64,000 nt of DNA from Antedon mediterranea (taxonomy: Eukaryota; Animalia; Echinodermata): positions 20,956,001 to 21,020,000 of the forward strand of contig NC_092674.1 of NCBI RefSeq assembly GCF_964355755.1, given 5' to 3'. Positions within the stretch are counted from its first letter, which is position 1; each line of letters starts with the position of its first letter. This document shows positions 8,837-49,001 of this stretch, piece by piece. A program made the translations under genes and the position numbers. The notes beneath the pieces were generated by a model that worked only from the letters and a program-made list of their open reading frames with translations, had not been told where the DNA came from and did no database searches.

Positions 8837-11800
8837 AAATAATTGGTAGTCTAATTATTGGTTATGTACGAAATCCATCTTTAACAGCTTTTCTCATGCC
8901 ATCCTTGGATTTACCTTGTCCGAGGCCATGGGTCTTTTCTGTTTGATGGTTGCGTTCCTTATTCTCAGTTTTGTATGTAAATCGTGTATAGAGCTTAGAG
9001 CTGCAATCTCTACGAGAATACCAACATTTTCAGAGAATGAATTCTTGTGCCTATTCTAAAGAAACCCAATATAGATCATTCAATACCAACCAACTACAGA
9101 ACAATAATTGTTTTTTAATATCCTGTCAAAACTATTTGAACTAGGTTTTAACGAATCATGTAAACTTGACCCATCAGGATCAGGAAGGAATGGGGAAATT
9201 AATACGTGGGGGTAGTTGGGGAACGTGTACGGATATAAATATTGTATGAGAAGTTTCAAAATGATGATCAGACCAACACGTTTTACTAGATAATTTTTCA
9301 ATATTGAAATGAAAAACAATAAATAGTAAACTGAAAGTTAATTGGATGTTTTTTTGTATGGTGAATTTATACGAAAATATTGTAAATAATGAATATGCTT
9401 TAAATTATTCTGTTTTTAAAATATTGGCAAATTTTAAATAAAAGGTCTAGAAAATTCATTTGTATTATTTAGTATTCAAAATGTATAAGAATAATTTCAT
9501 AAAATGACACGTACGTTAGCCCGGCGCTTACGAACACCTTATTACGACATCTTCAGATAAATGTTTAATTTCTGGTAAAGTTACAAAATGCTATGCTTAC
9601 AAGTTTTTGAGAAAACAAAATTGTGGAAACAGTGACGAATAAAGAAGATGAAAAGAAGAAGATCGTGACAATAACAATAGCAATAACAATATAATAATTA
9701 TAATAACAATAATAATAATAATTCATACAATAACAATAGGCGATCATTTTATTTTAAGTTATACCTAATTATGTACTATAATACTTCTACTGATAAGATC
9801 TTTAGCATATTGTAATATACAAACGATTTTAAAACAAGTTAGTGTTTACGGAGCAACCGACCTACATAGTCGGCCCACTAAAGCTGATGATAAACTTTCT
9901 CCTCGCATAAAAGAAATAAATGCATTTTGCAATGGGTTCGTTATTGAAAACTGGTCAGAAATGTACAATTGTGATTCAAAATTAGCGTTTGAAACAGTTT
10001 TATTTAAATTTTATAATATTCATGATAAGCATACTTCTCATAACACTATACCCTTCAGGAAAATACCCAAACAACCGTGGATGTCACCTGGTTTAATAAA
10101 AAGTAGTAGAAGGAAACATAAACTGTACAACAAATCTATTTTCTCTCAGAATCCCAATCACAAATCAATATAATATTAAATATAACAATATGTTCAATAA
10201 ACTTTGTCGTACAGCTAAAAGAAATTATTACTTTTCAAAATTTGACGCTGTCAAAATGTAATCTAAAAAAATTTCATCTGCGATAATTTCTGTACTCAAT
10301 TCAAATAAGACTAATAGAAATTACCCCATACTCATTGAAACAGATGATAAAACCATTACTTCTGATCAAGGCATTTGCGACTCTTTTAATAAATATTTTT
10401 CCTCAATCGGTTCTTCTCTATGCAATTCTATGTTAGATCCTCAAATTGATTTTTTAAGTCCTATCTTCCAAACCCAGTTTTTCAATAATGTTTCATTAAT
10501 CCTGTAACCGAATATGAAGTTTTACAAATAATTAACATTAATGATTTAAATTCCAATAAAGGCGGTGGTCACGACAAAAGTACGTCACGCATTATTAAAA
10601 TAGCTTCCCCTCACATTGTCAAACACTTTTACCTTTCTATTACCTCTTCTTTTTCGACTGGCAATTTTCCAAATTATTAGAAGCTCGCCAAAGTTATACC
10701 TGTTGTTAAAAAAGGCAGCAAAGATATACTCTCAAATTATAGACCGATTTCATTACTTAGTGCTTTCTCTAAAATAACATGCAGAAAGTTAATGTACTTG
10801 CGTCTTTATGACTTTCTGGACTGTCATAATATTCTTTTTACACATCAATATGGTCTCCGCAAAAATCATTCTACATCTCATGCGATTATGGATTTTATTA
10901 AAAATGTAACTGCAAAGATAATTTTTGTTATCAGTTTTTGTTGACCTATCTATAGCATTCGACGTTATTAATCATAAGATTCTTATTGGTAAATTACATA
11001 ACTATGGTATTAGAGGTATTGCTTTAGAATGGTTTACAAGTTACCTGAAACATAGGAAACAAATGTTTCTTTGGGTAACTGTCTTTCATCGGAGGAGGAA
11101 ATCACTTTTGGGGTGCCACAAGGTTCTGTCCTTGGACCATTGTTATTTTTAATTCATGTGAACGATTTATCCAGAGCCAGTCGGGTTATTTCTTTTGCCG
11201 ATGACACTACGCTTTTTTTATTCCCATCCTGATTTAAATGTTTTATATGCTACAGTGAATAATGAGTTAATATCTATAAATGACTGGTTCATCTCAAATA
11301 AACTTATTATCAACTCACGAAAAACAAATTATATCCTCAACAAAGAAAGCCTATTTATTCAAATGGAAAAACTATTGAACGCATGCCTAAAACTCTGTTA
11401 CTTGACGTCTATATTCAAGAACATTTGAGATGGACCTGTCATCAAAATCACGTAGCAAAAAAGGTTTCTAAAATAATAGGAATTATTAACTCAAATATAT
11501 TTTCCCACAAGGGTGTTCTTCTTGCTTTATATAACTCATTAATACTTCCACACATTCATTATTGTAATATAATTTGGTGTGCTGATTACCCTTCAAATAT
11601 TAACAAAGTAAACAAACTGATAAAAAAAATGGCGCTGACAGAAGCGATACATCTGTTTATACATTAAAACACTTCATGAAAAAATTGAAGTTAAAAGATG
11701 TATGGAGAAATAAAAATCCAAATAAAATTCAATTTACATGGCGAGGAAAATGCCACCAAGTATATAGACGACTTGGTTTCTGGCTAATCTCAAACAATAT

Positions 11801-17318: not shown

Positions 17319-18330
17319 GTCACGAACTCCTTTGACGTGAAATAACTCCAGAAGCTTTTTCCGAATTTAATTCGTTTTCATCTCTTAGTTTTTCTTTTCT
17401 AGCATGATCTCTAGTGTCAACTTCAGGAGTGCCTTTCACTCTTTTCTCCTGGTTGTTTCTATTTTCGTGTTTTCTATTTTGAAACTTTTTCTCAAAAAAA
17501 TGTTCTATCATCAGCTGCATCATAAGATTCTGTTGCTGCATTTGCTGTTGCATCATAAGATTCTGCTGTTGCATTTGTTGCTGCATCAACAACAAAAAAT
17601 TGTTTGAAGATGATACAGCCCCTGTAGGGTTATGTCCACTGGTTGGTCCAGACTCCTGTGTCTGTTGTTCAGGTTGTAATGACTGAACCGATTCTACATC
17701 AGAATCAGATTCATCACCACCGCTGTATTCTCTACCGGATCTTGTTGTTGATTGTTTATCAGTCTTATTTTAAATCTGGATGAGGGTCTTGTTACTAGTT
17801 AATCGTAGTTACCGAGACGTTCACAAGTCTACTGTTCCAAATAAATAATGTACTGTTCTTAAAACAATGTTTGTGTACTTACGATTAAACACAACGTAGC
17901 ACCACGGCTTCCGTAAAATATCACAGTATTGTAAGTACCGCTTCCACAAAATATCTCAATAAAAGTACAGTTGATCCTAAAACAGCCACCAATCTATCAC
18001 AAAATACAGTAGATCAAACGTACTACTACCACAAAATATCACAACAGTAGATAAAAAATAAATCCACAGTTAAGTCGAACAGTAGATCGAAATAACCGCT
18101 ACCACCAAATTATGTCGAACACCGTTGCCACCAAATTATGTCACGAACTCCTTTTACGTATGTTTCCGAGCGGTTGAAAATACTTTAGGAACTCCCTTGT
18201 GACATAAGAGTAAACACACAAAATCCACAAAGTTGTAAATTAACTCAAAACAAAGCTTTAATTCCAATCAACTTCAACTTTCAACAATCCAGTAAGCACT
18301 TTAAACAACAGCTTCACAATAACTTTTACT
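17319..18330 (-). mobile_element. LTR-retrotransposon remnant (PBS-like motifs, gag N-terminus with Gln/Met repeat)
   Basis: Minus-strand tggtggtagcggt (~18095-18107) and tggtggcaacggt (~18121-18133); TRSG motif then acidic and QQQMQQQNLMM repeats; direct repeat gtcacgaactccttt at ~17319 and ~18140. Confidence 0.5.
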
Positions 18331-18665
18331 CTTTCCGTTAAAAAATAACACCCAGATTCTTGTAGAGAATTATGTCTAACGACAAACGAGATTAAATTAT
18401 GAGTTGCAACCTAGTACCATGGGCAACTGTAACATTTTCCGTCACTTGTTCAATAAATCAGTGTTGTACTCAGCAGACACGATTTTCGATACAAAGTCCA
18501 AACATGTATATTTTACAGTAAATACAAAGTACAGACGTGGTGCATCTTTCGTACTTTTATCATAAGTGGTTTTTCTTTCCTGATTGTAGAATTAAGTTCT
18601 AGAATGTTTTTGATTACTTATGTACACATTTTTTTCTTATTATTAAGAATAAGTGATACATTGCA

Positions 18666-20894
18666 ATGGATTTGTTGAAGAAGCTAGGTTTTTTTACCTG
18701 TGTACTGGTCATTATTTACAACACTGGGAAGTATTAAATATATAATAATGGTGATTGATTCTTTCCATACACTGTGTTTTTGTGACAGCAAATGTTCTGA
18801 ATTTTGATTATCTGTTGACAAACTGGTTTGTCCAATCGCAATAGTGCTTTTGAGAACTTAGTGACAAAGATCACCCACAAACGTTATGGTGCCTCTTATA
18901 ATTTGTGTTAAAACTAAAGCAAGTAAGAAATACTCTATGGTATAATCAGTTTATGTATGAAACGAGTTATTTCATCATTTTTCACCTTAAAATCAAAGTT
19001 TCACAATACAAAAAATAATTTTTTCGTGCAACATATTAATATGTTCATTGTATTGTGATTACCTTTAGTTCAGATTTCATTGATTTTATTTTTATTGTGT
19101 GAATTTAGAGTCAAGCTTGGTTAATACATTACGCGAACATAACTGTTTTTTGTCGAACATGATGGTCCGTGATAAGAAAGACTATACTGTTAAAATGGAT
19201 CGTGTTGTTAACTCTCGTTCTGCCATTCAATGCGTCAGCTTTTGTACTCTTGACCCAACATGCGTGTCTATCAGTTTTGATGGAATTAATTCATGTTTGA
19301 TGTACAGCGTCGAAAACGGTAGTTTAGATACTGACAAAGGACAACCTACATACTACGAAATTACCAAGGTATTATGGCGTGTCCATGGGTGTTTTTCTGC
19401 TTAATAACACAAAAATATACGTGAATAACTACAACTACTATATTATAGTGTGCTACAATTACATTTCTACGTACTGATACAAAAACAATTATTTTGACAT
19501 ATTGCTCACGTACGTAGGCCTACGTTTGTACTTACACGTAACAAAATGCGTTAATGTGTCGGCCTTTTCACGCATTAAACCATAATTTACCTCCTATCAG
19601 AAACATGCCCCGTGATCTAAGCACCTGGGTTGTGGGATTGGATCCAGTTGGGTTGGTCATAGCTGGGCATTTAGGAATACCAGAGAAGAGTGAAATTATT
19701 TTAATATTTAATTAATTTCACTCTTTTCTGGGAGTACTGTTTTTGCCGTACATCCCAGATCGTTGGGTCATCTATGGATGCTGTAACTACACACACATAC
19801 AAACGTAAACATGTCTTAAAGATGTTTTTCGTTTATTTTCTCTTTTGACTTGTTGCACATCTTAATGTTGAACTTTGAAAAAATGTTATTATGCCGGCCT
19901 GGCCATTTTGAGTTTTTTTTTAGTTTTCGGTGGGCATGTATTATGCTCACAACCAACCATGACTGCGACGGCTGCGCTAAGCTGCTGTAGTATTTCTGCC
20001 ATCTTCATCATTGTCGTTTACTATTATTTATTCTTTATACTTAGATAAGAAATCATGAATGTACTGGTTACAACAACGAGGAGGTCAAATGCGTTTACCA
20101 ACATGGACATGAATGCGAAAATATGAGTAAGTTAATTACTGTCATTACACGACGAAGGGTAGAGGTTTCCGTGTTCAAACAAACATCAAATTATAAATGA
20201 TTAATGGAGGCTCGCGCTCAAAATTGTAAACTGGTCGTGCGTAATATCATTGTTTAATATCATTATCATGTTATGGTTATTTAAATTAATGCTTGGTTCA
20301 TAAGAACACCGTACATTGACCAATCACGGCGCGATGGATCCCATCTTAACTGTCGCTTCCGCTTTGTCAACTCACTTTCTTTGCGCCCATACGTCATTGG
20401 AAACCAGCTTAATTTTAGTTTTTGTTTGTTAAGTTATTACTAGTTTTATCTATTTTTTCTCTACAGTGTGCAAACAAAATGTTACAACTACAAACAACGA
20501 ATATCGTTTTGATAACCCAATATTCCAAGTAGAAACGACGACAAGGATAGAGTTCAGTGTTGTTGCTAAAAATGACGTTTACATTGCGTTATCGTCAAGT
20601 CCGGAGGTTATGACACCAATGTATGAGATTGTGATTGGTGGTTGGAAAAATACTAGATCAGTCATTCGCCGCTGTGCGCAGTGTGACAATGAGAAAATAC
20701 ATGTTGAAACTGGAATACTATCTGTGGATGAGTTTACCAAATTCTGGATATCGTTTGTAAATGAATCAATTCGTGTTGGTTTGGTAGGCAGTGACCCTTT
20801 CATTGAATGGGATGACCCGAATCCATTTCCTGTCAAATACGTTGGATTCTCCACATGGCACGGAATCAAAGGAACATTTCAATTTTGTCAATGA
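18666..20894 (+). CDS. PAN/Apple + FAMeT-like protein, copy 2 (exons 18666-18726, 19109-19368, 20045-20126, 20467-20894); intron-1 donor is GG, possible pseudogene
   Basis: Exons collinear with copy 1 and open, but 18727-18732 reads ggaagt instead of gtaagt. Confidence 0.8.
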
Positions 20895-21268
20895 AATGTT
20901 GTTTGTATTCATATTTATCTTTTTAAAATTAAGCACGGCAGTTGTAGGCTAGGCCTACTTCAATCAAAATATAAGGCACGCTAGAACAGTAGAATGATAG
21001 GCCTGCTTCTGTTTAAAGATATCAACTAACCCTGAGGTTATGTTCTTTTTTAATGTCTGCTTGCTTTGATAATTTAATTTTAAATATATATATATATTAC
21101 ATATAGATTAAATTTCTAAATGCTCATGACCTCTTACTTGTATACAATCAAATAACTCGACTATAATTCAGATCTTGTTGAGATGTTAAATGAGGGTTTT
21201 GTATACAGTATTATTGGCTGACATGGCGTTTGTTTTGTATTATTACGAACTAGCCCGAACTCTACTAT

Positions 21269-22496
21269 CCCAGCTAACAATTTAACGTTCAAATAACGTT
21301 ATTTGAATGTTATCTGTTACGTTTTTTGAATGTTACAAATTAACGTTAAGTTGACTTAAAAATGTTGACCCTTGTAAACGGTCATTGAAAGTTTTTTGTC
21401 AAGTTTGTTGAAGGTTTAAAATAAAGTTAAAATGAGGTGTTTTTATTAAAACATTCAAAAATAGTTGTTTTAATACTAAATAAGTAGCTAGCTTGATAGA
21501 TAGAATTGTACAGATGTACTGATAGTAACTGTTACTGAGCTAAGAAGATTGGCAGATGCTTGGCTTTGGTATACTCAGGCTAATACTAAAGTGGGCCAAG
21601 CGCGCCTAGAAGTACAGATGAGACAGACTAGCCAATCAAATCGTATTTTTCATGAAATAAGATCCTTCATGAGGTCTCCTTGTGAATAATGTACGTGTAT
21701 AACAACTACTGTAGGTCATAGCATAAAACTGTTTTTTTTTCTAATCTGTTGCAACATTTTAATATACTCTACTGAAAAACAGTATCTAATGTCCCATTTT
21801 TGTGAATGTCATTTTAACTTAAGATGGACGTTATCATAACAGTTCTGTTAAGTGCATCTCCTTACTTTCTATTACCGATTAAAGTTGTGTACACGGCTTG
21901 ATTCTTTCAACGTTAGATGTATGTTAATGAAAATGTTATATTTTAAGGTTCTAATTGCCGTTCTTTTCAATGTTAAGTTATCTTCTAACGTTATTGTAAA
22001 TGTTAATCGAACGTTAGATGAATGTTTATAAAGTGTTCTCTAATAGATACTTTTACATTTGATTGATACATTTTTAATGTTAATAAAAATGTTATGTACA
22101 AGTCGTATTTTAACATTTTTGTGAACGTTCTTTGTACGTTAGATAAAGGTTTTAGAAATATTTATGTATTTTAACGTTATTATAAAAAGTTAATCTAACA
22201 TTAGATGAACGTTGTTAAAAAGGTTCACCGAAAGTTACTTTTTGAACGTTATTCTGAATGTCCTTCTAATGTTCGATAAACCATTCTGTTTAAGTTAGAT
22301 TTAAAACATTATTGTGAACGTTCTTTCAACGTTAGATAAAGATTTTAGAAATAGTTATGTAACATTTCATTTTAATGTTATTATGAAAGTTAACCTAACG
22401 TTAGATGAACGTTGGTTACTGGAAGTTACTTTTGGACGTTTTTCTGAATTTCCTTCTAATGTTTGTTAAACGTTATTTTTGTATATTTTTGCTGGG
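21269..22496. mobile_element. Non-autonomous DNA transposon (CCCAGC...GCTGGG ends, many AACGTT repeats), left part
   Basis: Starts cccagctaac, contains tttgctggg at 22488-22496; absent from the paralogous 3' flank of copy 3 (~55815-55830). Confidence 0.7.
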
Positions 22497-22654
22497 AAAT
22501 AGCCAGGTGTTTTATTGACAATACTGAAGGTTTTTAATTAATATTAATTTACACATTATTATTATTATACCGTATTTCGTTCATGATACTAATTGACATT
22601 TTTATCACATCAGTAGAAAAAGAGGTACTTCAGTCAGCCTTGACCTTGATGTAT

Positions 22655-22908
22655 TTCCTGATTACGTAATATCCGCCAGGTGTTTCTAATGAAGGTCGTT
22701 CTTTTCCTGATTACGTATAGTTATGTAATTTGAAGGTCGTTTTTTTCCTGTTATTGTAATAGTTATGTAATTTCCGCCAGGTGTTTCTAATGAAGGTCGT
22801 TCTTTTCCTGGTTTCGTACTAGTTATGCAATTTCCGCCAGGTGTTTCTAATGAAGGTCGTTCTTTTCCTGGTTTCGTAATAATTATGTAATTTCCGCCAG
22901 GCGTTTCT
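22655..22908. repeat. Subterminal 60-bp tandem repeats, left end (mirrored at ~36800-37040)
   Basis: tttccgccaggtgtttctaatgaaggtcgttcttttcctg... with tttccgccag at 22771, 22831 and 22891; unit arrangement differs between the two ends. Confidence 0.9.
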
Positions 22909-22928
22909 TTGTCTCTTATTTATTAATT

Positions 22929-22965
22929 TTTGGCGCGATGTTCTGGTACGTGGTGAGTGACGTCA
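22929..22965 (+). promoter_or_regulatory. E2F-like (TTTGGCGCG) and ATF/CRE (TGACGTCA) motifs upstream of the first ORF
   Basis: Motifs at 22929-22937 and 22958-22965, conserved in the right arm; function inferred only. Confidence 0.4.
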
Positions 22966-23078
22966 TTACGTTATTTATGATTTAAGACGGTGTAACAAAG
23001 TGAAGCGGTTATTGTTGTACTATTTTCCAGTTGTTTTTGCATATTTTTGCGTAGAGTATCTCTTTTCAGTATTTCATT

Positions 23079-23633
23079 ATGTCTGGAAGTATATATTTTT
23101 CGCAAGGGAGTTGTGCAGATAATGTTATAATAATTAGCGATGATGAGGAGACTGTTGTTGTTCCAGGCAGTGATATAGATGATCGTTACACGGAGGCCGA
23201 AGAGGTTATCCCCGCCGGTATAGATGAAGGAGTCGAGAGGAGTAACAGGCCTACAAGTTGTATATTCACGTACTTGGACGAGGTGGAGAGAGAATTTATG
23301 TTGAAAATGGAGCGTTTGGTTAAACAATTGTTTGCTGCTCAAGTGTTAGCCAAGTGTTGGGTTTTAAGTAAAGCGGATTGTTATGGTTGTGAATTTGACA
23401 GGAGCAGTCAAAAAGATCATGATTTTTGTTGTATGAAGTCTCTAGAGGAACAGATTGACTATTTTTATCGGGAGGTTCTGGATAAGAAGTATGTTTCAGT
23501 CGATACCGTTTACAACGAACTAAATATGCACGGAGAATATTCATTGCCTCGGTATAGACATTTCGTTTATTTTCTTGTCAATACCCTGATTAATTCAGAG
23601 GCTATTTTTAAGCTGTTGTGCGAGGATATTTAA
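23079..23633 (+). CDS. Uncharacterised 184-aa acidic protein with SIM-like motif and Cys/His cluster
   Basis: Open ORF, more GC-rich than flanks; VIIISDDEE; CYGCEFDRSSQKDHDFCC. True start uncertain (1-nt indel between arms just after the ATG). Confidence 0.65.
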   Translation: MSGSIYFSQGSCADNVIIISDDEETVVVPGSDIDDRYTEAEEVIPAGIDEGVERSNRPTSCIFTYLDEVEREFMLKMERLVKQLFAAQVLAKCWVLSKADCYGCEFDRSSQKDHDFCCMKSLEEQIDYFYREVLDKKYVSVDTVYNELNMHGEYSLPRYRHFVYFLVNTLINSEAIFKLLCEDI

Positions 23634-23792
23634 ATTGTGTTTCGCACGTGTCACGGAAACGATTGACCGGAAATAACAATCATTATCTTTTTAATTACTG
23701 TACTGGGCTACTTCCCTACTGAGCTGCATATATATCCTGATTCAAGCGTAATCGTTCGTTTCACTCTCTGTAACTCTCTACAGTCTATAAAC

Positions 23793-25634
23793 ATGAGTTT
23801 CAACTGTTTACCTACTCCGAAATTAGCAATTGGTGAGAAAGCCCGTAGGACTATGAAAAGAGTTATGGGGAGTTCTAATGGTCAAGCTGACGAGTGTAGC
23901 AGTTTAAAATTACCAACGATGGCTTCTACATCAGCGAATATAATGGATTCTATAAAATCTTTTAACGGTCAAACAGATGAGTGTAAAGGTTTGAGTAAAG
24001 CCTCAGGAATGAGCGCCCGAGATTTTGCCGTAATGACCGATGGTGTACCAAAGATTTCCATAACTTCAAAGAATCGGATTTTCTTGTCTGAAAAACGCCA
24101 TGTAGTGGCCCAGCGATGGGGTGACGATGTTTATGTTTGTCTCAGAGAGTATTACCAAACGGAAGAATATGGTGCCTTCAAACCTGGACCTCTAGGTATT
24201 AATTTACCCGTTCTGCTGTGGCAAAAACTTTTCAACAATATTGATTTAATTATTCAGTCACTGGAAGACTTACAAAGAGACATTAACATGGTGGAGGCAG
24301 TAAGAATCCCCCTTTCGGACATAATTCATGTGGTAGTTAGTAACTGGAAAGAAGAACAATTTGTGTGTATTCGTCGCTATTACCAGTCTGAAGAAGGAGG
24401 AAAGTTTAAACCCGGTAAACAAGGTGTAAACCTTCCAAAGAGTCAGTGGTTCAAGTTAATTGAAAAACACGGTGAAATACAAAAGATGATTGAGGAGGTT
24501 GGTAATGATAATGCAGCTACTGTTGAAGGAGGTGTTGACAAAAACGTTAATGGAGGACGTTTATTCAATTCAGAACATCATTTGCTACCTCCTGATAAGT
24601 TATCGGTGCAAAAGATAATAGGGGAAAATTTAGACTGTGATTACCTTCAACTTCTTGATAAAGGAGCAGCCGATACATTGTTTAAAAAATGTGAGGAAGA
24701 GATTGACTATTTTACCGGTGATTTTGCAAAGGTGAAAGTGTATGGAAAGTGGTTTAATATTCCTAGAAAACAGGTTAGTTCCATTATGTTTTTATCCGTG
24801 GTTTTGTATTAATGACTTGTTAATTACTTGTATATCGTTTCCTTTGTTTTTCTTTATTTACCGCTGTGTAGCTATAGGTGTAATTTACTCTTTTACTGTA
24901 AATTATTTTATTTAGGCGTGTTCATTTACATCTCGCCAAATAATAAATGACTTTCTTTGTATGGTTTCCTCTCTGCAGGTTTCGTTTGGCGATGCAGGCT
25001 TAACTTACAAATATTCAGGCAATACAGTACCAGCTTTACCGTGGCCACCATTCCTGAAAGATCTCCGCGACCTTTTAAAATCGGTTACAGGACATTACTT
25101 CAATTTTGTTTTGGTCAACCGGTAAATATTCTTGTTTATTATTTTATTTATTTATTTTTTTTTATTGATTAAAAGGGTCTATAGTTTACCTCTAAAACGA
25201 TTGAACATTATCAGTATTCATACTGGATGATTTCTGCAATTTGTTAGATAAGATTGTTTTAATGGATAATTGGGGTTTTTTTTAGTCTCATCTTAAAATA
25301 TCTTATTTTCTATTGTATTTTGTCGTTACTCTATAGATATGCTACTGGAAGTGATTACATTGGCGAACACAAAGATGATGAGAAAGACATGGATCACTTT
25401 AGTTCAATCGCCTCTGTATCATTGGGGCAAACACGTATGTTTAGATTTCGACATGGTGATGCGCGAGGTAAGAGTCCCAAAAGAATCATTGAGCCAGTAA
25501 CTGTTGATCTTAAACACGGTACATTATTAATGATGAATTATCCCACTAATGAGTACTGGTACCATTCACTGCCTAAAAATCAATCCATCAAGCTACCAAG
25601 AATAAATCTCACGTTTAGAGATATTAAAAGATGA
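23793..25634 (+). CDS. Tandem PC4 (Sub1-type ssDNA-binding) domains fused to an ALKBH2-like 2OG-Fe(II) dioxygenase (473 aa; exons 23793-24773, 24979-25121, 25337-25634)
   Basis: PC4 repeats VCLREYY...KPGPLGINL...WQKL and VCIRRYY...KPGKQGVNL...QWFKL; ALKBH2 motifs VYGKWFNIPRKQ|VSFGDAGLTYKYSG, FNFVLVNR|Y, IGEHKDDE, YHSLP, RINLTFR; GT-AG introns in phase 0 and 2. Confidence 0.9.
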
Positions 25635-25964
25635 GAGAAATGTTACGCAAACATTACAGTCTTTAATAGTGATTGCAGATCTCAAGAATATCAACTGTTC
25701 ATGATCTGTTCTCATTTAGTATAGTAGTACCAGTTGAATTATTTTTGTGATGATATTCCTACAAATGGTTGTATTATTGTATTGAAGTTAATTCACTTAG
25801 ATTTTGGCCTAATTCCATTGATCGTTAATAATCATGTGATTGTTTGACATTGTGTGGATAATGATTAACTTTACGAATAATTTCTTAAAAGTAACTTGTA
25901 ATGTATTTCTAATTGTTAAATACAATTTTTTATGTTTTTAATAAGTGTGTAAGTTTTTCTTTAA

Positions 25965-27092
25965 AATGGACCTGAAATGGATTTTCGATTTTTTTCATTT
26001 TAGAATGATGTTTTGGGGGCTATTAGGTGTTGCTAGAATGTATATTGTTACAAAATATAAATTGGCCCTTTTGGGGAAAGCCCCATTTGAAAATCAAAAG
26101 AATTCGCGGGTGACATCACTTTGCGAATATATTCCTATCCCTCCAATGGACAATTTGCAGTTTTTTGGCTATAACTCTTGAAATCTATGGAGTATTTTCT
26201 AAAAAATGCTTGTGCATATGCAGAAACGTATTTAGAATTTTTTTAGATAAAATTATTACCGTATAAACGGTTATTCATCGAGTAAATGACGATTTAAAAT
26301 CTTAAAATCAACGTTTTTTTCTGGCAATACCGAAGTTGGCCTGGCAACGTTGTCCGGGATACAGCTCCGTGCGCAATGATGCGTATCCATATTTTCCGTT
26401 CGTGTATTTTGTATATCGTTCGTAATTTATACTGCTAAAATGTGTTAGTTTCTTTAGTTTTTAGTTTAGCAGAATTAAATTAGTAATATGAGATGATAAT
26501 TTATTTGTCACAAATCAGGCAGTTCGAAAACGAATTTTATTCATATTTTACTTTGGCTTGACAATGAGCGTAGCACGTTGTTGATATCGCTTTGGTCCTT
26601 GGATGCACATGAAACGGAGCCTCGCCGCATGATGTGGGTGGTGGATCGACTCCGCGCGCTGGATTGGGGGCCTAGGCCTAGTAAAGGTTTGGGAGGTAGG
26701 CCTTCTAAATTCGGGTTTTAGAACAAACGAAGTACATTTTAGGGACCTATATTTCAACAACATTAGATATTGAATAAATTAGTATTAGTGTCAACGCTTC
26801 GCGTATCTTTCCAGGCCGTCGATCATTCACTGACTTTCGGGCGGCATACACGCTCTCGATATCATCGTGTGTATATGTGACGTCGTGAATATAGAGGCTT
26901 CCGACGGCCGTTGAAATAGAATATTGCAATGGCGTGAGTAATTTTCGCTAATTTACCATGGTATCTTAAAATTTCGTTTTTACTCAAAATACTATACATT
27001 TTGTTTTTATTTGTATGGGTTTGTGTTAATTTGATACATTTAAATAACATGTGTGAATTTCTTGAAAATCGAAATTCCATTTCAGGTCCATT
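25965..27092. mobile_element. MITE with TTAA target duplication (Kolobok-like ends)
   Basis: ~30-bp TIR aatggacctgaaatggattttcgatt / aatcgaaattccatttcaggtccatt; TTAA at 25961-25964 and 27093-27096. Confidence 0.8.
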
Positions 27093-30000
27093 TTAAAGCA
27101 TTTTAATCGTAATTTCAAGAGTAATATGTACTTGTAACGTTTGAACCGGACTGGTAGATTAAACAAAAAAAAAACAAAAACAACAAAAACAAAACACGTT
27201 ATAATAACACTAATAATAGCACATATTTTCGTACATGTATCAATGATTTATCTACATATGTGTGATTAATATTATTACAATAAAGACCATGTACATCTAC
27301 GATATTTTTACTGTAAGTGGTATTGTAAATAAAAATTATGAATTCAATCGTGAGAAATTACCGATATCTGTGTATTATTTTATATTACTTTTATCATAAT
27401 TGCAACAAAAAAAAAAAATTCAGAGAAATCATAATTATCGAATACAGAAAGACGTTTTGGTTACCAATTGTATTTCTTGACACTTAATACATTTTAACAG
27501 AAAACAAGACCTTCAACCGGAGCCAAAAGTGGAAATTTGTTTACGTGCAGGTTATTGCCATTAGATATTCTTAGAACTACTTTGGTTTTTATAAATATTG
27601 TCACTTTTTTTCTACACGTTTATCTACCGAGATTTTGTTTTCCTTTTTATGAATCTTCCGTTGTTCATAAGCATTATTAATTTTTACAGGCCTTGTTCTT
27701 CGCTTTGCAGGCTAAATCTTATAACGGCATAGGCCTACATTTTAACGGTTCTTTGTAAATATCCTCTTATTGATTGTTACCTTTAGTTCTCTGAATGTTT
27801 TAATTTACCGTAGATGATGAAAAAATCCATTAATCTAGCACCATTTAATAAAAAAAAGGTTCCGCAGTAAATGGTTTATTTTTGATGGTATTGATGGAAT
27901 CATCGAGGCACAATATTAGGCTGAAAAACATGACGTCACTATTTTAAACGGTTTATCATACAAGAACAATTAACCAATCACAAAACTGAGCTACTGATTT
28001 GCGTAGAAGTTTCTGGAAATGACAAATTAAGGAAACACGTACACATTAATAAATATATATTAATTTTTATATAAATAATAGACAAAACAAAAGGAAATAC
28101 ACCAAACAAATCATTTTCGTTATGAATTTATAATAACTTTAAATTTTGTCCATCACAGGAGACGCGTTTTCCAATTGTAAAACAGTTTCGCATTGCGTCG
28201 CAACACATGCACATACTGCAAGTACCGTACCGTACTGTAACAAGTCTACTGATATGTATTTTGTTGGTCACTCATCATTTTAGCCAACACATTATTTAAC
28301 TCATCAGGTGTAATATCTTTTCACAAATCCTTTATATCTTTACTTTTTCTTGACAACTCATAACAAACAAGAATAGTACTCTGAATGAGTGTGGGAGAGG
28401 TGTGTGGGAGTCCCATTCAACTAAACCTTGCCAATTTGTACTCGACCTACGATAAAACCATTTTTTAAAAGTCAACATAGCGACGCGAGAAAAAATTGAT
28501 AATAGGGATAAAAAGTTTTTCTTGCATTGTTATACAGTAATCTATGTTTTTCGGTGTTTACACCATCTCATTGTTTATAATTACGTTTGTTAATATCGAT
28601 AGTGTTTCTCTAGCAGAGTTATATTACTTGTTTATACTCGTATAGTTTGCAGCCCTCCATGTTGTTCGTATATTTTGTAAAAAGTGTACTTATGATTACT
28701 TTTAAAAACCAACTCATTTTATTTGCATTTTATCTACACCTCATGGTTAAAATGTGTTGTTTTTCATAGAGTGTGATGCTGCTTAAAACGTTATACTAGT
28801 ATAACCACCAAAACGGTTTATTATCTGTAGGAAATCATCAATTGTAACATGCGGTAAACAATACAAATTAGTTTCACAAATTATTAAAAAATAGCACAAT
28901 TGTTACAAATGAATTTAAGAAAATAAAGGTGTACAGATTTTATTTCGAAAAAGTGTAGGCCTAGACCTACAAAGATAATTTTACATAAAGTGTACAGAAT
29001 AAATTAACAAAAAAAGGTCACACATACATTAAACTAATTCTTATAAAAGTGTGTACAGTGTAGGCCTACTTTGGTTATCAGGTATATCAACTTTAGTATT
29101 TTAAGTATAGGGCCTATTTGTGGCAAACACACGGTTCCTTTTAATTGTGGGTAGAGGCCTTTTGCCGTTCGTAATTCAAACTGTTCGTAAAATTGAAGTT
29201 AATATTCTGAGATTAGGCCTATAGCCTATGATTGCAGCTTATACTAGTCAACGGTCTAAAAGAGCTGTATTGCAGGATGCGAAACATAAAAGTTCAATAA
29301 TAAACAGTATATTATAACGATAAAGAAACGAATGTACGATACACCAATATAGCAATACAATAACTGATTAACTGAAAACTTGAAGTCTACTGTATTCCTA
29401 CAATCATTCAAGTAGACATTGTTTGCTGAGTGTATGGTACTTTCTCCAAAGAGAATTCGAACGATGGGCTTTCGGACGTGTTTCTACGGTTATCAGAACG
29501 GGTCGATAATGAAAAAAAAAAAACAAACAAACAAACTGCCTACTAACTCCCAAAAAATCAATACCTATAAATAAGCTGAACCTACCCCACTAAATAATCT
29601 CTTCCATACATCAAAATCGACCGAAAATGATCTGGACATTGAAAAGTGGACACGGTCGTCTGTTCTTCTTTTCTGTTTCCACGGCTTGGGACGACATCCC
29701 TGCTAGTGATGTACGGTAGCCATGCGGTCTACACACTTATGATGACCACATCGCATAACATGTTCAGGGAACTTATTTTTCAACTCTCTGATACAATGTT
29801 TAAATACAAGTAGACTGGAAACCATTTAGGAACAGGGGTTTCTAATAATAAAAGTTGTTTAAAACTTTAGTTATTGTCAAGGGGAATTGTTCAAGACTTG
29901 GAGTAAAATGGTCAAGACCGGGGGAAAATGGTCAAGACCGGAAGAAAATTAAATTTCACCATTTTATAAGTTTATAGTCATTTATTGTGTTAAAATTCAT

Positions 30001-30125
30001 TTATTATTAGACCTGTATACGTATTCAATAACAAAAAATAACTTTGTTACATTAATAACATATCTTTAGTGGTTAAGGTAATATATTATTTCTCTGTATA
30101 CTGACGTCACAAATATAGATAAAGA

Positions 30126-30421
30126 GAGACTGTAACTAAATGTTTATTACTTATTAGGGTTACAGGGAGAGTTCCATACAGCATTAAAAGGTCAATTAAT
30201 GAGCCACCCAACTTAATTAAGTACCGGTACTTAACAAATGTGCTCAAACTCAATAAGGGTTACAAATCTACAAGAGACTGTAACTAAATGTTTATTACTT
30301 ATTAGGGTTACAGGGAGAGTTCCATGCAACATTAAAAGGTCAATTAATGAGCCACCCAACTTAATTAAGTACCGGTACTTAACAAATGTGCTCAAACTCA
30401 ATAAGGGTTACAAATCTACAA
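30126..30421. repeat. 148-bp tandem repeat x2 next to the palindrome centre (mirrored at 30793-31088)
   Basis: gagactgtaactaaatg... starts at 30126 and 30274; each unit contains the 18-bp palindrome ttaagtaccggtacttaa. Confidence 0.95.
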
Positions 30422-30574
30422 AAGAGAACATTTTATTTTTAAACCAGGGTTAAACATTAAAAGGTCAATTACTTGAACTCTGAACATGGGAAAAATACTT
30501 GTGTCAATTGACACTTGAACTTGACATCTATACAAGGACGAATAGACTGTGACAATTAACCATGACCTCTGGTC

Positions 30575-30639
30575 CCAAAAGCATGGGGGTTTCAGTTTTC
30601 GACTTCGTCGAAATTTGAGAGCCCCCCAATAAAACGGCT
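30575..30639. other. 65-bp imperfect hairpin at the axis of the giant palindrome
   Basis: Core tttcgac-ttc-gtcgaaa (30597-30613), extended by tttcag/ttgaga (G-T pairs) and tggggg/ccccca, with mismatched bases further out. Confidence 0.85.
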
Positions 30640-32368
30640 GACCAGAGGTCATGGTTAATTGTCACAGTCTATTCGTCCTTGTATAGATGTCAAGTTCAAG
30701 TGTCAATTGACACAAGTATTTTTCCCATGTTCAGAGTTCAAGTAATTGACCTTTTAATGTTTAACCCTGGTTTAAAAATAAAATGTCCTCTTTTGTAGAT
30801 TTGTAACCCTTATTGAGTTTGAGCACATTTGTTAAGTACCGGTACTTAATTAGGTTGGGTGGCTCATTAATTGACCTTTTAATGTTGCATGGAACTCTCC
30901 CTGTAACCCTAATAAGTAATAAACATTTAGTTACAGTCTCTTGTAGATTTGTAACCCTTATTGAGTTTGAGCACATTTGTTAAGTACCGGTACTTAATTA
31001 AGTTGGGTGGCTCATTAATTGACCTTTTAATGCTGTATGGAACTCTCCCTGTAACCCTAATAAGTAATAAACATTTAGTTACAGTCTCTCTTTATCTATA
31101 TTTGTGACGTCAGTATACAGAGAAATAATATATTACCTTAACCACTAAAGATATGTTATTAATGTAACAAAGTTATTTTTTGTTATTGAATACGTATACA
31201 GGTCTAATAATAAATGAATTTTAACACAATAAATGACTATAAACTTATAAAATGGTGAAATTTAATTTTCTTCCGGTCTTGACCATTTTCCCCCGGTCTT
31301 GACCATTTTTACTCCAAGTCTTGAACAATTCCCCTTGACAATAACTAAAGTTTTAAACAACTTCTATTATTAGAAACCCCTGTTCCTAAATGGTTTCCAG
31401 TCTACTTGTATTTAAACATTGTATCAGAGAGTTGAAAAATAAGTTCCCTGAACATGTTATGCGATGTGGTCATCATAAGTGTGTAGACCGCATGGCTACC
31501 GTACATCACTAGCAGGGATGTCGTCCCAAGCCGTGGAAACAGAAAAGAAGAACAGACGACCGTGTCCACTTTTCAATGTCCAGATCATTTTCGGTCGATT
31601 TTGATGTATGGAAGAGATTATTTAGTGGGGTAGGTTCAGCTTATTTATAGGTATTGATTTTTTGGGAGTTAGTAGGCAGTTTGTTTGTTTTTTTTTTGTT
31701 TTTTTTTTCATTATCGACCCGTTCTGATAACCGTAGAAACACGTCCGAAAGCCCATCGTTCGAATTCTCTTTGGAGAAAGTACCATACACTCAGCAAACA
31801 ATGTCTACTTGAATGATTGTAGGAATACAGTAGACTTCAAGTTTTCAGTTAATCAGTTATTGTATTGCTATATTGGTGTATCGTACATTCGTTTCTTTAT
31901 CGTTATAATATACTGTTTATTAATGAACTTTTATGTTTAGCATCCTGCAATACAGCTCTTTTAGACCGTTGACTAGTATAAGCTGCAATCATAGGCTATA
32001 GGCCTAATCTCAGAATATTAACTTCAATTTTACGAACAGTTTGAATTACGAACGGCAAAAGGCCTCTACCCACAATTAAAAGGAACCGTGTGTTTGCCAC
32101 AAATAGGCCCTATACTTAAAATACTAAAGTTGATATACCTGATAACCAAAGTACACTGTACACTTTTATAAGAATTAGTTTAATGTATGTGTGACCTTTT
32201 TTTGTTAATTTATTCTGTACACTTTATGTAAAATTATCTTTGTAGGTCTAGGTCTACACTTTTTCGAAATAAAATCTGTACACCTTTATTTTCTTAAATT
32301 CATTTGTAACATTTGTGCTATTTTTTAATAATTTGTGAAACTAATTTGTATTGTTTACCGCATGTTAC

Positions 32369-35300
32369 CAGTGGGACAGCCAGTCGACAAATCGTGTCAA
32401 ATTTCGACTCGGAGAGGGCGCCCTACTTTTATAATTTAGTTCAAAATTGCTAAATTTTAGGGTGTTGGAAAAACACAATATTTGTATATTTAGCTGATTA
32501 TCGGAAAAATATTGTTAGTGAAATAAATTCATAAATGGTTTTAATATATTGTCGTGTAAAATTAAATGTATTTGAACAAAACGATAATCTGTAATTTAAC
32601 GGCAAAATCAACCAATGTCTTTTTTCCGAAATTGTACCCTAGAAAATCGTTAAAATAAAATATTTAGAAAAATTGAACAATCCTGAATTTAAAATCCCTG
32701 TTAGAAAAATTAATAAGCTACAGAATACGATATTAAGATACAAAATTCGGTGGTTGGGATGCAGCTCCGACTATTCAAACTAAAGGTACCACTATTTGTT
32801 CCATCGAAAACTAGCGAAACCGCCATTTTGTAAACACATCGTCATCGTGTTTATGAATTTATTTATAGCGAACGATATACGCGATGTTTATTTATATTGT
32901 CCGCGTATAAGAATTCATATAAATAAATACATTCCAATACAACGTATATTATTACTTGTTTATTTATCACAGTATACATTTTAGTTGAGGAATATTTATC
33001 ATAACTATTATAATAGCTTTTATACGAGTCCGAGGCCTAGCCCTATTAGCGAGCGATTGTTCCAGGGGCGGAAAGTCACTTAGTGACGTTGTGATCGGGC
33101 GCGTCGGGCCTAGCTAATATTAATAATATGACCTGAAATAACCGGCTAACAAGAACTGTTATATACTTGCTTACAATTGTTTTGTTATTGATGAACAAAC
33201 AAGCAATTAGATTGAATAACAAATTACTTATTCATTTTTTTTAGGTAAAAACATGTACAAACTAGTACTCTATAATATAAATTAATAGTAATATTAAACT
33301 AATACAGTATTAATAAAATATAAAATAGGCCTAACATACAATAAATATTCAATTTTTAAGGTCTACCACATGGCAATAACATAATTTACAGAGTATAGTG
33401 TAGTAGGTTTGCATTTAACATAAATATTTGTATTGTAATTCATCTAAATCCTCTGCAACATACATATATTTGTAATTCAACATTTTGTTTTAAATAATTA
33501 AATTATAGTTTGGGTATGACAACGTCGGTAGGTACCGGTGTCATCTTTTTATCCAGTTCACTCTCAGTTTGAAGTCACAAAGACAAAGAACTCTGCATCA
33601 TCAACGATTCCTGAAAGTGTCAGAAAAAATAATAAATATTATTTAAAAAAAATGTTAATGTCAAATGGAAGCTGTATTTTATTAATTAATAATAATATTA
33701 CAGTATTTGCTATTATTATTTATAATAATCTAGGCCTACTTGTAGCCTAGCTAGGCACCTATTGAGCCTAATAAATCAAATAATAAATGAAAAATAAAAT
33801 AATAATATTAATACTGATTGAAAAAAAGTATTTTTTTGGGGGGGATCAGATCACCAGGCTAGGCCGGCCGCGATTTTTTTTTTCGTACATAAGTTGGGGA
33901 CCCCTCATGAAACGTCACAAAATAAACATGAATAATTCATCAGTTAAATTTGTTGTTCCGTGTGCACCCAAGCGTATTGCAACAAGAAGTGATTACACAA
34001 CTGCGATACGATACTTTCTACAGTAGGCCTAGGATTCTAAGTTAATTCACGTGCCGCCGATGCCTTCGCGCACTCTTCTTCACACAAAATGTCGAGTCGA
34101 GGCTAATCGACAGCTAGGCAAGACATTAAACTAAGTAGTAATTCATTGGACATAGCCCAAAGAAAGTTTAGACCCACAAGAATAAAGAATGTGTATAATT
34201 TGTGTACTGTATTTTTATAATTCTGCTATTTTATTATCAAACAATATGCATGTACTCAAATGAACTTTAAAAATGCGCGTATATGAACACATGAGATGGG
34301 AAGATTTGACCCACTAGAATAAAAAATGTATTTTTGTGTAATGTTTATTGTTTAATTTTGCTGACTTATTACTCAGATTGTGTCATACCAAACACACACA
34401 CGTCACACACACCCACACAGCTACTACTAGTGTACTAGATATAGACATGGGTTTAGAGACTAATAATTAGGCCTAATAGTATTAATAGAAACTATAATTT
34501 TAACACGTATTCTTTAGTAATAAATTATATTAAAAACACCATAAACTAAAGGCTGATTATTTCGACAATCCACACAAAACGCCGCTATTCTTCTATGAAA
34601 TCGCACGCCGCAACAACAGCGGAGACAGGCCTAGAATCGTACCGCACTTGTGTAATCACTCTTGTTGCTATACGCTTGGAACACGGAACAAGAAAATTTA
34701 ACTGATGAATTATTCATGTATATTTTGTGACGTTTCATGAGGGGGTCCCCAACTTATGTACGAAAAAAAAAATCGCAGGCCGGCCTGGACCAATGATACT
34801 CGTAATCAGTACAACTTAACGACTATCGGATCAGCATCAACACAGTACAACACACGTCTCGCTATCGCCTATACTGACACACGTGTCTCGCGTTGCCGAA
34901 ACCACGCTCACAGCTAGAAAATGTACCTACCTTTCGAGGCCTGAGAATACACCAACAAATTTTGAACAGCATAGAAATATATCATACTCGATTAAACTAA
35001 TATTATTCTTGATAAAACAATTGATTATAATTGTTTTAATTTGTTGGGATGCACCTCCGACTATTCAGAAAATGGACAACAAAACAGTAGTCAAATCGTA
35101 CCACATTTATAAATTTCACGAGTCCCGACTTCAGTCGCCGAATGTATTGTATTAGCTTCGGTTTCTTTGAAGGAAACCGATTGGTTATTCAATTATACTT
35201 ATTAGGAAATGCTTTTACCATAATAGGTAATGTTGGGCGGTTCTTAAATATTCATGAGAGCTTAAAAAAAAACAGCACTTATTTGCTAGGCGACGAAAAA

Positions 35301-35407
35301 TCGTGGTTTCAGTTTTCAACGATAGGTGGCGCTTCAAAATCGTCAATGCGGAAGTAAGTCGATTTTACACGATTTAACGGTCAAAACGCGAAGTGGCTTT
35401 CCCACTG
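32369..35407. mobile_element. 3.0-kb non-autonomous DNA transposon in the right arm only; CAGTGGG ends, 4-bp TTAC duplication
   Basis: Left arm gives the empty site (caattgtaacatgcgg, ~28839-28854); TTAC at 32365-32368 and 35408-35411; TIR cagtggga(c/a)agcca. Confidence 0.85.
33861..34787. mobile_element. Nested MITE-like segment with ~150-bp inverted repeats
   Basis: 33861-~34012 is the reverse complement of ~34636-34787 (cgtacataagttggggacccc / ggggtccccaacttatgtacg). Confidence 0.7.
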
Positions 35408-35615
35408 TTACAATTGATGATTTCCTACAGATAATAAACCGTTTTGGTGGTTATACTAGTATAACGTTTTAAGCAGCATCACACTCTATGAAAAACAACA
35501 CATTTTAACCATGAGGTGTAGATAAAATGCAAATAAAATGAGTTGGTTTTTAAAAGTAATCATAAGTACACTTTTTACAAAATATACGAACAACATGGAG
35601 GACTGCAAACTATAC

Positions 35616-35636
35616 CAGTGGCGGATCTAGGGGGGG
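35616..35636 (+). mobile_element. Isolated hAT-like MITE terminus at a deletion breakpoint
   Basis: cagtggcggatctaggggggg replaces ~490 bp present in the left arm (28147-28639). Confidence 0.5.
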
Positions 35637-36027
35637 TGAAATTTAAATTTATTATAAATTCATAACGAAAATGATTTGTTTGGTGTATTTCCTTTTGTTT
35701 TGTCTATTATTTATATAAAAATTAATATATATTTATTAATGTGTACGTGTTTCCTTAATTTGTCATTTCCAGAAACTTCTACGCAAATCAGTAGCTCAGT
35801 TTTGTGATTGGTTAATTGTTCTTGTATGATAAACCGTTTAAAATAATGACGTCATGTTTTTCAGCCTAATATTGTGCCTCGATGATTCCATCAATACCAT
35901 AAAAAATAAACCATTTACTGCGGAACCTTTTTTTTTTTTAAATAGTGCTAGATTAAGGGATTTTTTCATCATCTACGGTAAATTAAAACATTCAGAGAAC
36001 TAAAGGTAACAATCAATAAGAGGATAT

Positions 36028-36630
36028 TTACAAAGAACCGTTAAAATGTAGGCCTATGCCGTTATAAGATTTAGCCTGCAAAGCGAAGAACAACAGCTTA
36101 AAAATAGCCTCTGAATTAATCAGGGTATTGACAAGAAAATAAACGAAATGTCTATACCGAGGCAATGAATATTCTCCGTGCATATTTAGTTCGTTGTAAA
36201 CGGTATCGACTGAAACATACTTCTTATCCAAAACCTCCCGATAAAAATAGTCAATCTGTTCTTCTAGAGACTTCATACAACAAAAATCATGATCTTTTTG
36301 ACTGTTCCTGTCAAATTCACAACCATAACAAGCCGCTTTACTTAAAACCCAACACTTGGCTAACACTTGAGCAGCAAACAATTGTTTAACCAAACGCTCC
36401 ATTTTCAACATAAATTCTCTCTCCACCTCGTCCACGTACGTGAATATACAACTTGTAGGCCTGTTACTCCTCTCGACTCCTTCATCTATACCGGCGGGGA
36501 TAACCTCTTCGGCCTCCGTGTAACGATCATCTATATCACTGCCTGGAACAACAACAGTCTCCTCATCATCGCTAATTATTATAACATTATCTGCACAACT
36601 CCCTTGCGAAAATATATACTTCCAGACATA
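36028..36630 (-). CDS. Right-arm copy of the 184-aa ORF with an altered C-terminus at the 4.1-kb indel junction
   Basis: Nearly identical to 23079-23619 (YL/YV, AD/AA, RS/RN differences); ends FKLLFFALQ... instead of FKLLCEDI; 1-nt shorter T tract puts the ATG out of frame. Confidence 0.55.
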   Translation of the reverse strand, partial: YVWKYIFSQGSCADNVIIISDDEETVVVPGSDIDDRYTEAEEVIPAGIDEGVERSNRPTSCIFTYVDEVEREFMLKMERLVKQLFAAQVLAKCWVLSKAACYGCEFDRNSQKDHDFCCMKSLEEQIDYFYREVLDKKYVSVDTVYNELNMHGEYSLPRYRHFVYFLVNTLINSEAIFKLLFFALQAKSYNGIGLHFNGSL

Positions 36631-37589
36631 ATGAAATACTGAAAAGAGATACTCTACGCAAAAATAGGCAAAAACAACTGGAAAATAGTACAACAATAAC
36701 CGCTTCACTTTGTTACACCGTCTTAAATCATAAATAACGTAATGACGTCACTCACCACGTACCAGAACATCGCGCCAAAAATTAATAAATAAGAGACAAA
36801 GAAACACCTGGCGGAAATTACATAATTATTACGAAACCAGGAAAAGAACGACCTTCATTAGAAACACCTGGCGGAAATTACATAACTATTACAATAACAG
36901 GAAAAGAACGACCTTCATTAGAAACACCTGGCGGAAATTACATAACTATACGTAATCAGGAAAAGAACGACCTTCATTAGAAACACCTGGCGGAAACGAC
37001 CTTCATTAGAAACACCTGGCGGATATTACGTAATCAGGAAATACATCAAGGTCAAGGCTGACTGAAGTACCTCTTTTTCTACTCACATCTAATATAATCT
37101 AATTATCGAAGCCGAATAAAAATAAAAATATATATTAAAACTACGAAATTGTGCTTGCTCAGAGAATTATTAATTTTCAGAACTAGTGAACGGAAATTAC
37201 TAATAATAATATTATATGCGTACCGGTATTAATGTGTATTATACAATTGTTGTTATAATGAAGAGTTTTATTAAAGAATCGAAGTATAATAAATGTATAC
37301 ATTAATTAATGAATATTACACTATGCCAATTTATACTTAAAAATACAACGATGTACTTTTTTTTATGAAAAAAAATATACACGTCACTTACTTTACTCTT
37401 TTAATGTAAAAGAGTGAAAAACCAAATGCTTCACTCTTTAATACCACTTTTTAAAAGGATGACATTCACTCTAAAAGAAGGAATTTTGGTTCTTTTTAAT
37501 TTGGAATATTCTGGTTCAATTGAAGTTTAGCACTGTAGCATTAGAATAGATATGGATACGGTAATTAAATACTTAAAGTAGCATTACAT

Positions 37590-37954
37590 TTTAATATTAT
37601 TATGAAAGTTAATCTAACGTTAGATGAACGTTGTTAAAAAGGTTCACTCAAAATTACTTTTGAAAGTTATTCTGAATGTCCTTCTAATGTTTGATAAACG
37701 TTATTAAAAACGTTCTGTTTAAGTTATATTTAAACATTATTGTTAACGGTTTTTGAACGATAGATAAACGTTATTAAGACAAGTTATTTAATTTTATATT
37801 TGAACGTTTCTATAAACGTACCCTCAACGTTAAAATAATGTCAAACAACGTTTTTTGAATGAACGTTATTCGAACGTCACTTGAACGTCCGTAGTGAACC
37901 TGAACAAACAACTGCCAAACACTAACGTTAGATAAACGTTATATGTTTGCCGAG
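37590..37954. mobile_element. Right part of the AACGTT-rich non-autonomous DNA transposon
   Basis: Similar to ~22170-22470; ends gtttgccgag followed by TA, after which homology to the copy-3 flank resumes. Confidence 0.7.
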
Positions 37955-48970: not shown

Positions 48971-49001
48971 CGTAGAATCAGTACTGTGATACTCTTTTTA
49001 C

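Follow-up and report, generated by a model that had tools for sequence, protein, structure and literature searches.

The fusion gene and its carrier

The window, that is, the whole 64,000-nt stretch of Antedon mediterranea contig NC_092674.1 that was analysed, contained a three-exon gene encoding two PC4 repeats followed by an ALKBH2-type AlkB domain, located in a 14,472-bp non-autonomous palindromic derivative of a Maverick/Polinton element. The gene had the following features, given in window coordinates:

23793–24773, + strand: exon 1, 327 codons with a phase-0 GT donor; N-terminal tail, PC4 repeat 1, PC4 repeat 2, linker and AlkB start
24075–24272, + strand: PC4 repeat 1, about aa 95–160; Pfam PC4 37.8 bits, E 1.3e-9
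24303–24500, + strand: PC4 repeat 2, about aa 171–236; Pfam PC4 50.7 bits, E 1.2e-13
24549–24560, + strand: putative fusion junction inside exon 1; the NDNG motif ends and host ALKBH2 similarity begins
24774–24978, + strand: intron 1, 205 nt, GT..AG, phase 0 after RKQ; ancestral ALKBH2 position
24979–25121, + strand: exon 2, nucleotide-recognition part of AlkB
25122–25336, + strand: intron 2, 215 nt, GT..AG, phase 2 in the R of NRY; ancestral ALKBH2 position
25337–25634, + strand: exon 3, with H386, D388, H451, R463, R469 and the stop

The predicted spliced product was 473 aa plus the stop (327 + 47 + 1 + 98 aa from the three exons). The first-pass annotation had described an intact spliced ORF of this length with two PC4 repeats and a complete AlkB domain, and these descriptions were borne out: with three exons and GT..AG introns, the gene was matched exon by exon by P0013, a 473-aa RefSeq model from another locus (318/327, 46/47 and 95/98 residues for exons 1, 2 and 3, respectively); each repeat separately exceeded the curated Pfam PC4 (PF02229) cut-off of 25 bits; and all iron and 2-oxoglutarate ligands were present, including the HxD..H triad (H386-x-D388 and H451) and the C-terminal RxxxxxR (R463/R469), with a match of exon 3 to 2OG-FeII_Oxy_2 (E 7.5e-19). 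The protein record of the window locus itself, P0017, was not the 473-aa form; it was a 339-aa read-through from exon 1 into intron 1. Since one uninterrupted frame runs from PC4 repeat 1 through PC4 repeat 2 into the AlkB domain, the fusion is independent of splicing. The junction was marked by the NDNG motif, which comes after PC4 in free crinoid PC4 proteins; DENDNG was common to P0019, P0058 and P0066, while the stretch downstream of the junction resembled P0020 and P0172.

The carrier consisted of the following features:

22606–22611: target-site duplication, left copy, CACATC, 6 bp
22612–23619, + strand: left terminal inverted repeat (TIR), starting AGTAG and holding most of ORF1
22731–22908: 60-bp subterminal tandem array within the left TIR
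23079–23633, + strand: ORF1, 184 aa, intact, with a CxGC..SQxxH motif
23620–27679: left-arm-only segment, holding the fusion gene and missing from the right arm
28844–32368: inner near-perfect palindrome, 8/1723 mismatches, with a 65-nt central spacer at 30575–30639
32369–35405: secondary insertion of 3 kb in the right arm, CAGTGGG...CCCACTG, TTAC duplicated
36090–37083, − strand: right TIR, ending CTACT
37084–37089: target-site duplication, right copy, same hexamer

The chance of a match between the two flanking hexamers was 1.7e-4. Long TIRs, a 6-bp duplication and end motifs of (AGT)2//(ACT)2 or (AG)3//(CT)3 are given for Mavericks in PMC8097293, and the end motif observed here, AGTAGA..TCTACT, had 5 of the 6 letters of (AGT)2. 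The TIRs (~1 kb) were 96% alike by self-comparison, with 0/50 mismatches at the tip and 6/710 (0.85%) inside; thus, the insertion is young. The element was palindromic about position 30607. In its right arm, the TIR abutted the mirror of 27680 with a short microhomology at the joint, a pattern that a deletion would leave, and the ORF1 copy in the right TIR had a frameshift near the start and an inner end that was cut off. No Pfam match to PolB, integrase, ATPase, protease or capsid was found in the long ORFs of the element or in its 45 internal ORFs of at least 48 aa, and the element was therefore filed as a non-autonomous derivative and not as an intact Maverick; a protein family was likewise searched for in the inner palindrome, and none was found. 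Small inverted-repeat insertions were also present within the element at 25959–27098 (34-nt arms, TTTAAA at both ends) and 33861–34786.

ORF1 was weakly similar to the C-terminal domain of P0147 (E 0.002; 1 of 500 shuffles scored as high), an unnamed 409-aa protein with a WW domain, two PC4 repeats and a CxGC..SQxxH domain; ORF1 and PC4 are therefore fused elsewhere. ORF1 homologues were found neither in the protein database (lengths 101–322) nor in viral contigs or the Atlas, a result that implies neither absence nor novelty.

The Maverick was nested within a larger AT-rich insertion (21266–37954), for which the empty site was visible in a paralogous repeat unit at ~55820. The window locus is hence not the host ALKBH2 locus, nor is it the only ALKBH2 of the host, as PC4-free ALKBH2s were found in Antedon (P0172/P0046 and P0006/P0020). 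Anneissia likewise has a PC4-free ALKBH2 (P0021). Elsewhere in the window were three tandem host repeat units (about 5100–9200, 18300–21300 and 52300–56000), of which an ORF at 20433–20891 matched Methyltransf_FA (E 2.4e-36), a BEL/Pao LTR retrotransposon at 41823–50053 whose 1.07-kb LTRs shared 97% identity and whose frames were interrupted, and non-LTR reverse transcriptase frames (RVT_1, zf-RVT) at 2782–4854 with a stop in between.

Origin of the PC4 and AlkB halves

The PC4 repeats were compared at the ssDNA-binding residues R70, F77, R86, W89, R100 and K101 of PC4, among which R70, R100 and K101 are named as DNA-backbone contacts in PMC4350104. Repeat 1 retained equivalents of R70, aromatic-77, R86, aromatic-89 and K97, had PGPLG in place of PGRKG of PC4, and lacked the R100/K101 equivalents; repeat 2 lacked the R70 equivalent and had PGKQG in the window copy versus PGKKG in the other copies checked. 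Two aromatics (W and Y) and R86 were retained in both repeats. Unlike the fusion repeats, the free tandem PC4 of Anneissia (P0022) retained both basic loops.

From a 62-row alignment, the tandem PC4 was predicted as one folded unit (pLDDT 94.7, pTM 0.88); a prediction for P0010 from the single sequence was unusable (pLDDT 34). Each modelled repeat superimposed on human PC4 (1pcf_A) with an rmsd of 1.2 over 66 columns, and the top solved-structure match of the whole tandem model was the single-chain Pur-alpha repeat I-II dimer 3k44_A (Z 11.2, rmsd 3.7, 129 aligned). The two repeats are thus predicted to form a single-chain, intramolecular PC4 pseudo-dimer, as had been proposed from the letters, and the model supports that proposal as a prediction. 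The top viral structure match was MOSUB of a lancelet adintovirus (E 9.7e-8, TMq 0.79, 178 columns). In sequence, the repeats clustered with unfused PC4 proteins of crinoid type (99/99), among them P0022 (tandem) and P0055 (single) of Anneissia. Tandem PC4 proteins without AlkB are already known, many with 2–4 repeats being present among the best 150 of 306 matches, two of them named from green algae. Neither the PC4 pair nor the ALKBH2 alignment found a match when viral contigs were scanned. The tandem PC4 is likely a native accessory gene of Mavericks/adintoviruses.

The AlkB half was assigned to ALKBH2, P0013 being much closer to human ALKBH2 (E 8.8e-71) than to ALKBH3 (E 1.5e-22). In a tree of 35 AlkB rows, the fusion proteins formed a clade (98/98) nested in a crinoid ALKBH2 clade (100/98). 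Their nesting inside Antedon had weaker support (87/81), and a capture after the Antedon/Anneissia split was favoured at that level, but the alternative was not rejected (p-AU 0.29). P0006 and P0020, near-identical 268-aa PC4-free Antedon paralogues, were the closest relatives of the fusion AlkB, which was 83% identical to P0006 over the domain; they may represent the donor lineage or another mobile capture. As for the duplex-recognition motifs, V-Y stood for Val101-Phe102, the R198/G204/K205 loop was kept, and RKK241-243 was absent (NQS); Tyr at the Phe102 position also occurred in sea urchin and sea star ALKBH2, and RKK was absent from the crinoid host copies too. A replacement of a PCNA-binding APIM tail by PC4-PC4 was considered and rejected, the crinoid host ALKBH2s lacking the motif by pattern, while a looser form of it occurred in 60 of 111 other matches.

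Homology ended at RKQ|V, the position of intron 1, in 42 of 54 ALKBH2-like unspliced gene calls, which were chosen by pattern from representative matches; nine continued and three behaved otherwise. Among 12 multi-block metagenome loci, two of them apparently one sequence, six broke at both intron positions. Because both introns sit at ancestral ALKBH2 positions, the AlkB half was captured as DNA, and together with the nesting in the crinoid clade this supports the capture of a host ALKBH2 suggested by the first-pass annotation. Its view of the whole gene as cargo held in part: the carrier is mobile, with Maverick termini and a target-site duplication, and the AlkB half is captured host cargo, whereas the PC4 half probably belonged to the element already.

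Related copies and a second PC4-AlkB pairing

Sixteen other related gene models were found in A. mediterranea, on at least six other long contigs. By Pfam, nine had two PC4 repeats and AlkB (one with a cut AlkB end), one had a single PC4 and AlkB, four had AlkB only and two had PC4 only; the full architecture of two PC4 stretches and a whole AlkB domain was thus present in 8 of the 16. Three of the models (P0008, P0011 and P0012) were AlkB-only proteins of 238–242 aa beginning at an internal Met near aa 232, and P0004 was PC4-only. Members of the PC4 family were detected in three of the best 120 of 274 AlkB matches (260–828 aa), all three from Antedon, and PC4 and AlkB occurred together in 13 of 176 proteins compared, all 13 being members of the Antedon fusion family. 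In Anneissia, PC4 and ALKBH2 occurred only as separate proteins among the matches found. A further protein, P0124, combined a lancelet-like ALKBH2 N-terminal part with a C2H2 finger and an acidic tail, and may be a gene-model artefact.

Between the two subfamilies represented by P0013 and P0019, identity was 195/201 in the AlkB domain, 60/68 and 57/68 in the PC4 repeats, 24/34 in the linker and 19/41 in the N-terminal tail, a gradient for which gene conversion could be an alternative cause. Ten of 16 listed coding differences, the 16 being the best-supported of 356 rows, were synonymous versus 26% expected (p 0.002). Overall, the fusion is real, constrained, multicopy and carried on a Maverick derivative.

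The spliced joint across intron 1 was present in contigs of runs X5 and X10 and absent from those of X1 and X6, the four runs compared; no RNA is on record among the 13 listed runs, X5 and X10 included. The X10 joint lay in an 88%-identical piece that is possibly host ALKBH2 mRNA, and the short side of the X5 joint was 19 letters. In run X10, depth was present in 20 of 30 bins, the uncovered parts being uninformative, and rows sharing a depth figure of 7.92 hint that PC4 repeat 2 and spliced exon 2 may be connected within a single contig.

Of 80 metagenome loci retrieved by means of an ALKBH2 alignment, three, namely L022, L030 and L035, had a PC4 ORF directly after an AlkB ORF on the same strand; their contigs, of 1.5–2.9 kb, are too short to reveal the carrier. 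Their PC4 ORFs were recognised by Pfam with E 1.6e-8 in L022, and with E 1.6e-4 in L030 and E 2.4e-5 in L035, the latter two just below the curated cut-off; the PC4 profile run over 5,846 ORFs of the metagenome loci gave nothing further below E 0.1. L022 had its AlkB ORF at 520–1134, a gap of 97 bp and a separate ATG-started PC4 ORF at 1232–1462. L030 (245–1329) and L035 (246–1272) each had an intronless ALKBH2-like ORF (about 41%) ending in a phase-0 GTAAGT donor, from which a pyrimidine-CAG acceptor led in frame to a PC4 exon, giving a predicted spliced AlkB-PC4 fusion in the reverse order. These two loci had a common data-set prefix and were identical at 94 of 112 positions over the compared stretch. 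Their AlkBs fell outside the crinoid clade, and a single clade for all PC4-linked AlkBs was rejected (p-AU 0.005) in a test on 27 of the 45 rows, with 18 metagenome rows left out and with long branches. The pairing of PC4 and AlkB has thus arisen at least twice, since three unrelated metagenome contigs show PC4 after AlkB. With the L035 AlkB as query, no match was obtained, and the L022 AlkB gave only ten distant matches (26–31%). Elsewhere among the loci, L001 and L002 were considered as element-borne intronless ALKBH2 genes and rejected, as they adjoin a zf-HIT gene as cellular loci would, and the L025–L052 group contained many intronless ALKBH2-like genes beside LRR, ankyrin and F-box genes in a giant-virus-like context.

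Proposed role and comparison with known systems

The likely origin is that a crinoid Maverick/Polinton took up the host's ALKBH2 gene as a genomic copy, which became fused behind the element's own doubled PC4 gene. We lean slightly towards a product that would work as a PC4-anchored demethylase while the element replicates, acting on the displaced strand, at the edge of the bubble or in the panhandle after re-annealing; the PC4 pair is predicted to grip unwound DNA and would hold the demethylase at the site of replication. Protein-primed strand-displacement replication exposes long single strands. Mavericks replicate via a protein-primed polymerase (PMC6431247), and 1-meA and 3-meC arise far more readily in ssDNA (PMC3413135 and PMC12295762). 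Such lesions would form mainly where single strands are exposed and would be a block to polymerases. With the PC4 pair attached to the displaced strand, or to the edge of the bubble or fork, demethylation by the ALKBH2 domain would take place either at that site or in adjacent re-formed duplex, namely a terminal-repeat panhandle or the fold-back of the palindromic window copy. Repair in re-formed duplex would suit ALKBH2, which acts on both ss and ds DNA with dsDNA preferred (PMC3413135 and PMC12295762). Selection probably acted while the gene rode a hypothetical autonomous element, the window copy presumably being a deleted passenger dependent on a helper.

Against an ssDNA-tethered role count this dsDNA preference, the apparent loss from each repeat of part of the DNA-binding residues, the read-through record P0017, the completeness of only 8 of the 16 models, the ambiguity of the X5 and X10 joints and the fact that no autonomous Maverick bearing the gene appeared among the sequences examined. 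Several of these would also fit a real fusion with uncoupled halves, in which AlkB functions independently, for instance as a form that starts at the Met near aa 232, and PC4 hitch-hikes or serves as a separate accessory; the AlkB-only P0008, P0011 and P0012, the PC4-only P0004, the end of P0017 in intron 1, the lost DNA-contact residues and the separate AlkB and PC4 ORFs of L022 all point this way. We regard it as rather unlikely, however, for neither subfamily has a break in the frame at the junction, conservation is higher in the PC4 repeats than in the flanking tail and linker, and a second fusion in reverse order is predicted in L030/L035. A role in opposing the host's methylation of the integrated element, by clearing the DNMT by-product 3mC or weakly oxidising 5mC at transcription or excision bubbles, is unlikely. 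ALKB2 does co-evolve with DNMT1/3 because DNMTs introduce 3mC (PMC9246332), and human ABH2 weakly oxidises 5mC (PMC10377887), yet the CpG observed/expected ratio of the element (TIR 1.19, exon 1 0.74) was not distinct from that of the flanks (0.86 and 1.14), no methyl-reader domain was fused, and PC4 indicates unwound DNA and not methylated duplex. A domesticated gene that gives the host extra repair capacity and is merely spread by elements would fit an intact gene in a non-autonomous copy and the additional PC4-free paralogues in Antedon, but is quite unlikely given the youth of the insertion (TIRs 0.85% apart), the copies on other contigs, the incompleteness of half of the models and the separate PC4 and ALKBH2 of Anneissia among the matches found.

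The PC4-anchored demethylase may belong to a broader pattern, for which we see somewhat less than an even chance: animal Mavericks/adintoviruses would have repeatedly and independently coupled a PC4 gene to a captured ALKBH2, in both orders, as a replication-coupled repair module. On the same tentative reading, such a module would be to DNA elements what AlkB domains are to plant RNA viruses, and PC4 would serve the element as its own targeting clamp. If the proposed role is true, a virus-like transposon offsets its single-stranded replication phase with its own targeted repair enzyme. That enzyme would have been assembled by joining a gene of the element to one captured from the host, and the site of the fusion as well as the host introns can still be recognised. 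The repeated PC4-AlkB pairing would be an initial clue to what the uncharacterised PC4/MOSUB accessory genes of Mavericks/adintoviruses do, and the fusion lends itself naturally to testing whether a demethylase that prefers duplex can be redirected by a module that binds ssDNA.

No published PC4-AlkB fusion was found in the literature searched; supplements and subscription papers, which lay outside its scope, could hold one. PC4 was absent from the available main text of PMC4738411, 10.64898/2026.10.13.758929 and 10.1101/2024.03.25.586562. Maverick cargo capture, a tandem-PC4 gene in an adintovirus and viral AlkB domains are each already known separately.

Plant RNA viruses carry AlkB domains, and these, like those of giant-virus-like contigs, likewise provide a selfish replicon with its own oxidative demethylase; they differ from the fusion in belonging to distant lineages without introns, with no PC4 beside them in the loci examined. 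With animal ALKBH2 (human ABH2; crinoid P0172, P0020 and P0021) the fusion shares HxD..H, RxxxxxR, the equivalent of the R198/G204/K205 loop and both introns; unlike these, it has PC4-PC4 in place of the N-terminal tail, Tyr at Phe102 and NQS at RKK, and is multicopy and mobile. With PC4/Sub1 it shares the PC4 fold in each repeat, and its two repeats in one chain are modelled in an arrangement like that of Pur-alpha I-II, whereas the asymmetric loss of basic residues and the attached enzyme set it apart from both.

The top viral match, MOSUB of a Branchiostoma lancelet adintovirus (A0A5H3CIS2), has the same tandem-PC4 fold in the structural match given above, but is 203 aa long, only 22% identical and too short for an AlkB domain. 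A MOSUB gene adjoins an ITR in one supplementary adintovirus map (Starrett et al., PMC8502044), AlkB does not appear in the examined part of that supplement, and neither PC4 nor AlkB is mentioned in the main text of that paper as far as it was accessible. The window copy shares AG..CT termini, long TIRs and a 6-bp duplication with nematode and vertebrate Mavericks (PMC8097293 for the latter). In nematode Mavericks, the 2–5 kb inside the left TIR holds intron-bearing host cargo, including wasp proteases and krma kinases (10.1101/2022.07.12.499685), and the fusion gene is likewise placed just inside the left TIR. Unlike known Mavericks, the window copy is palindromic and devoid of polymerase, integrase, ATPase, protease and capsid genes, and its cargo, a repair enzyme, shares one reading frame with an element gene.
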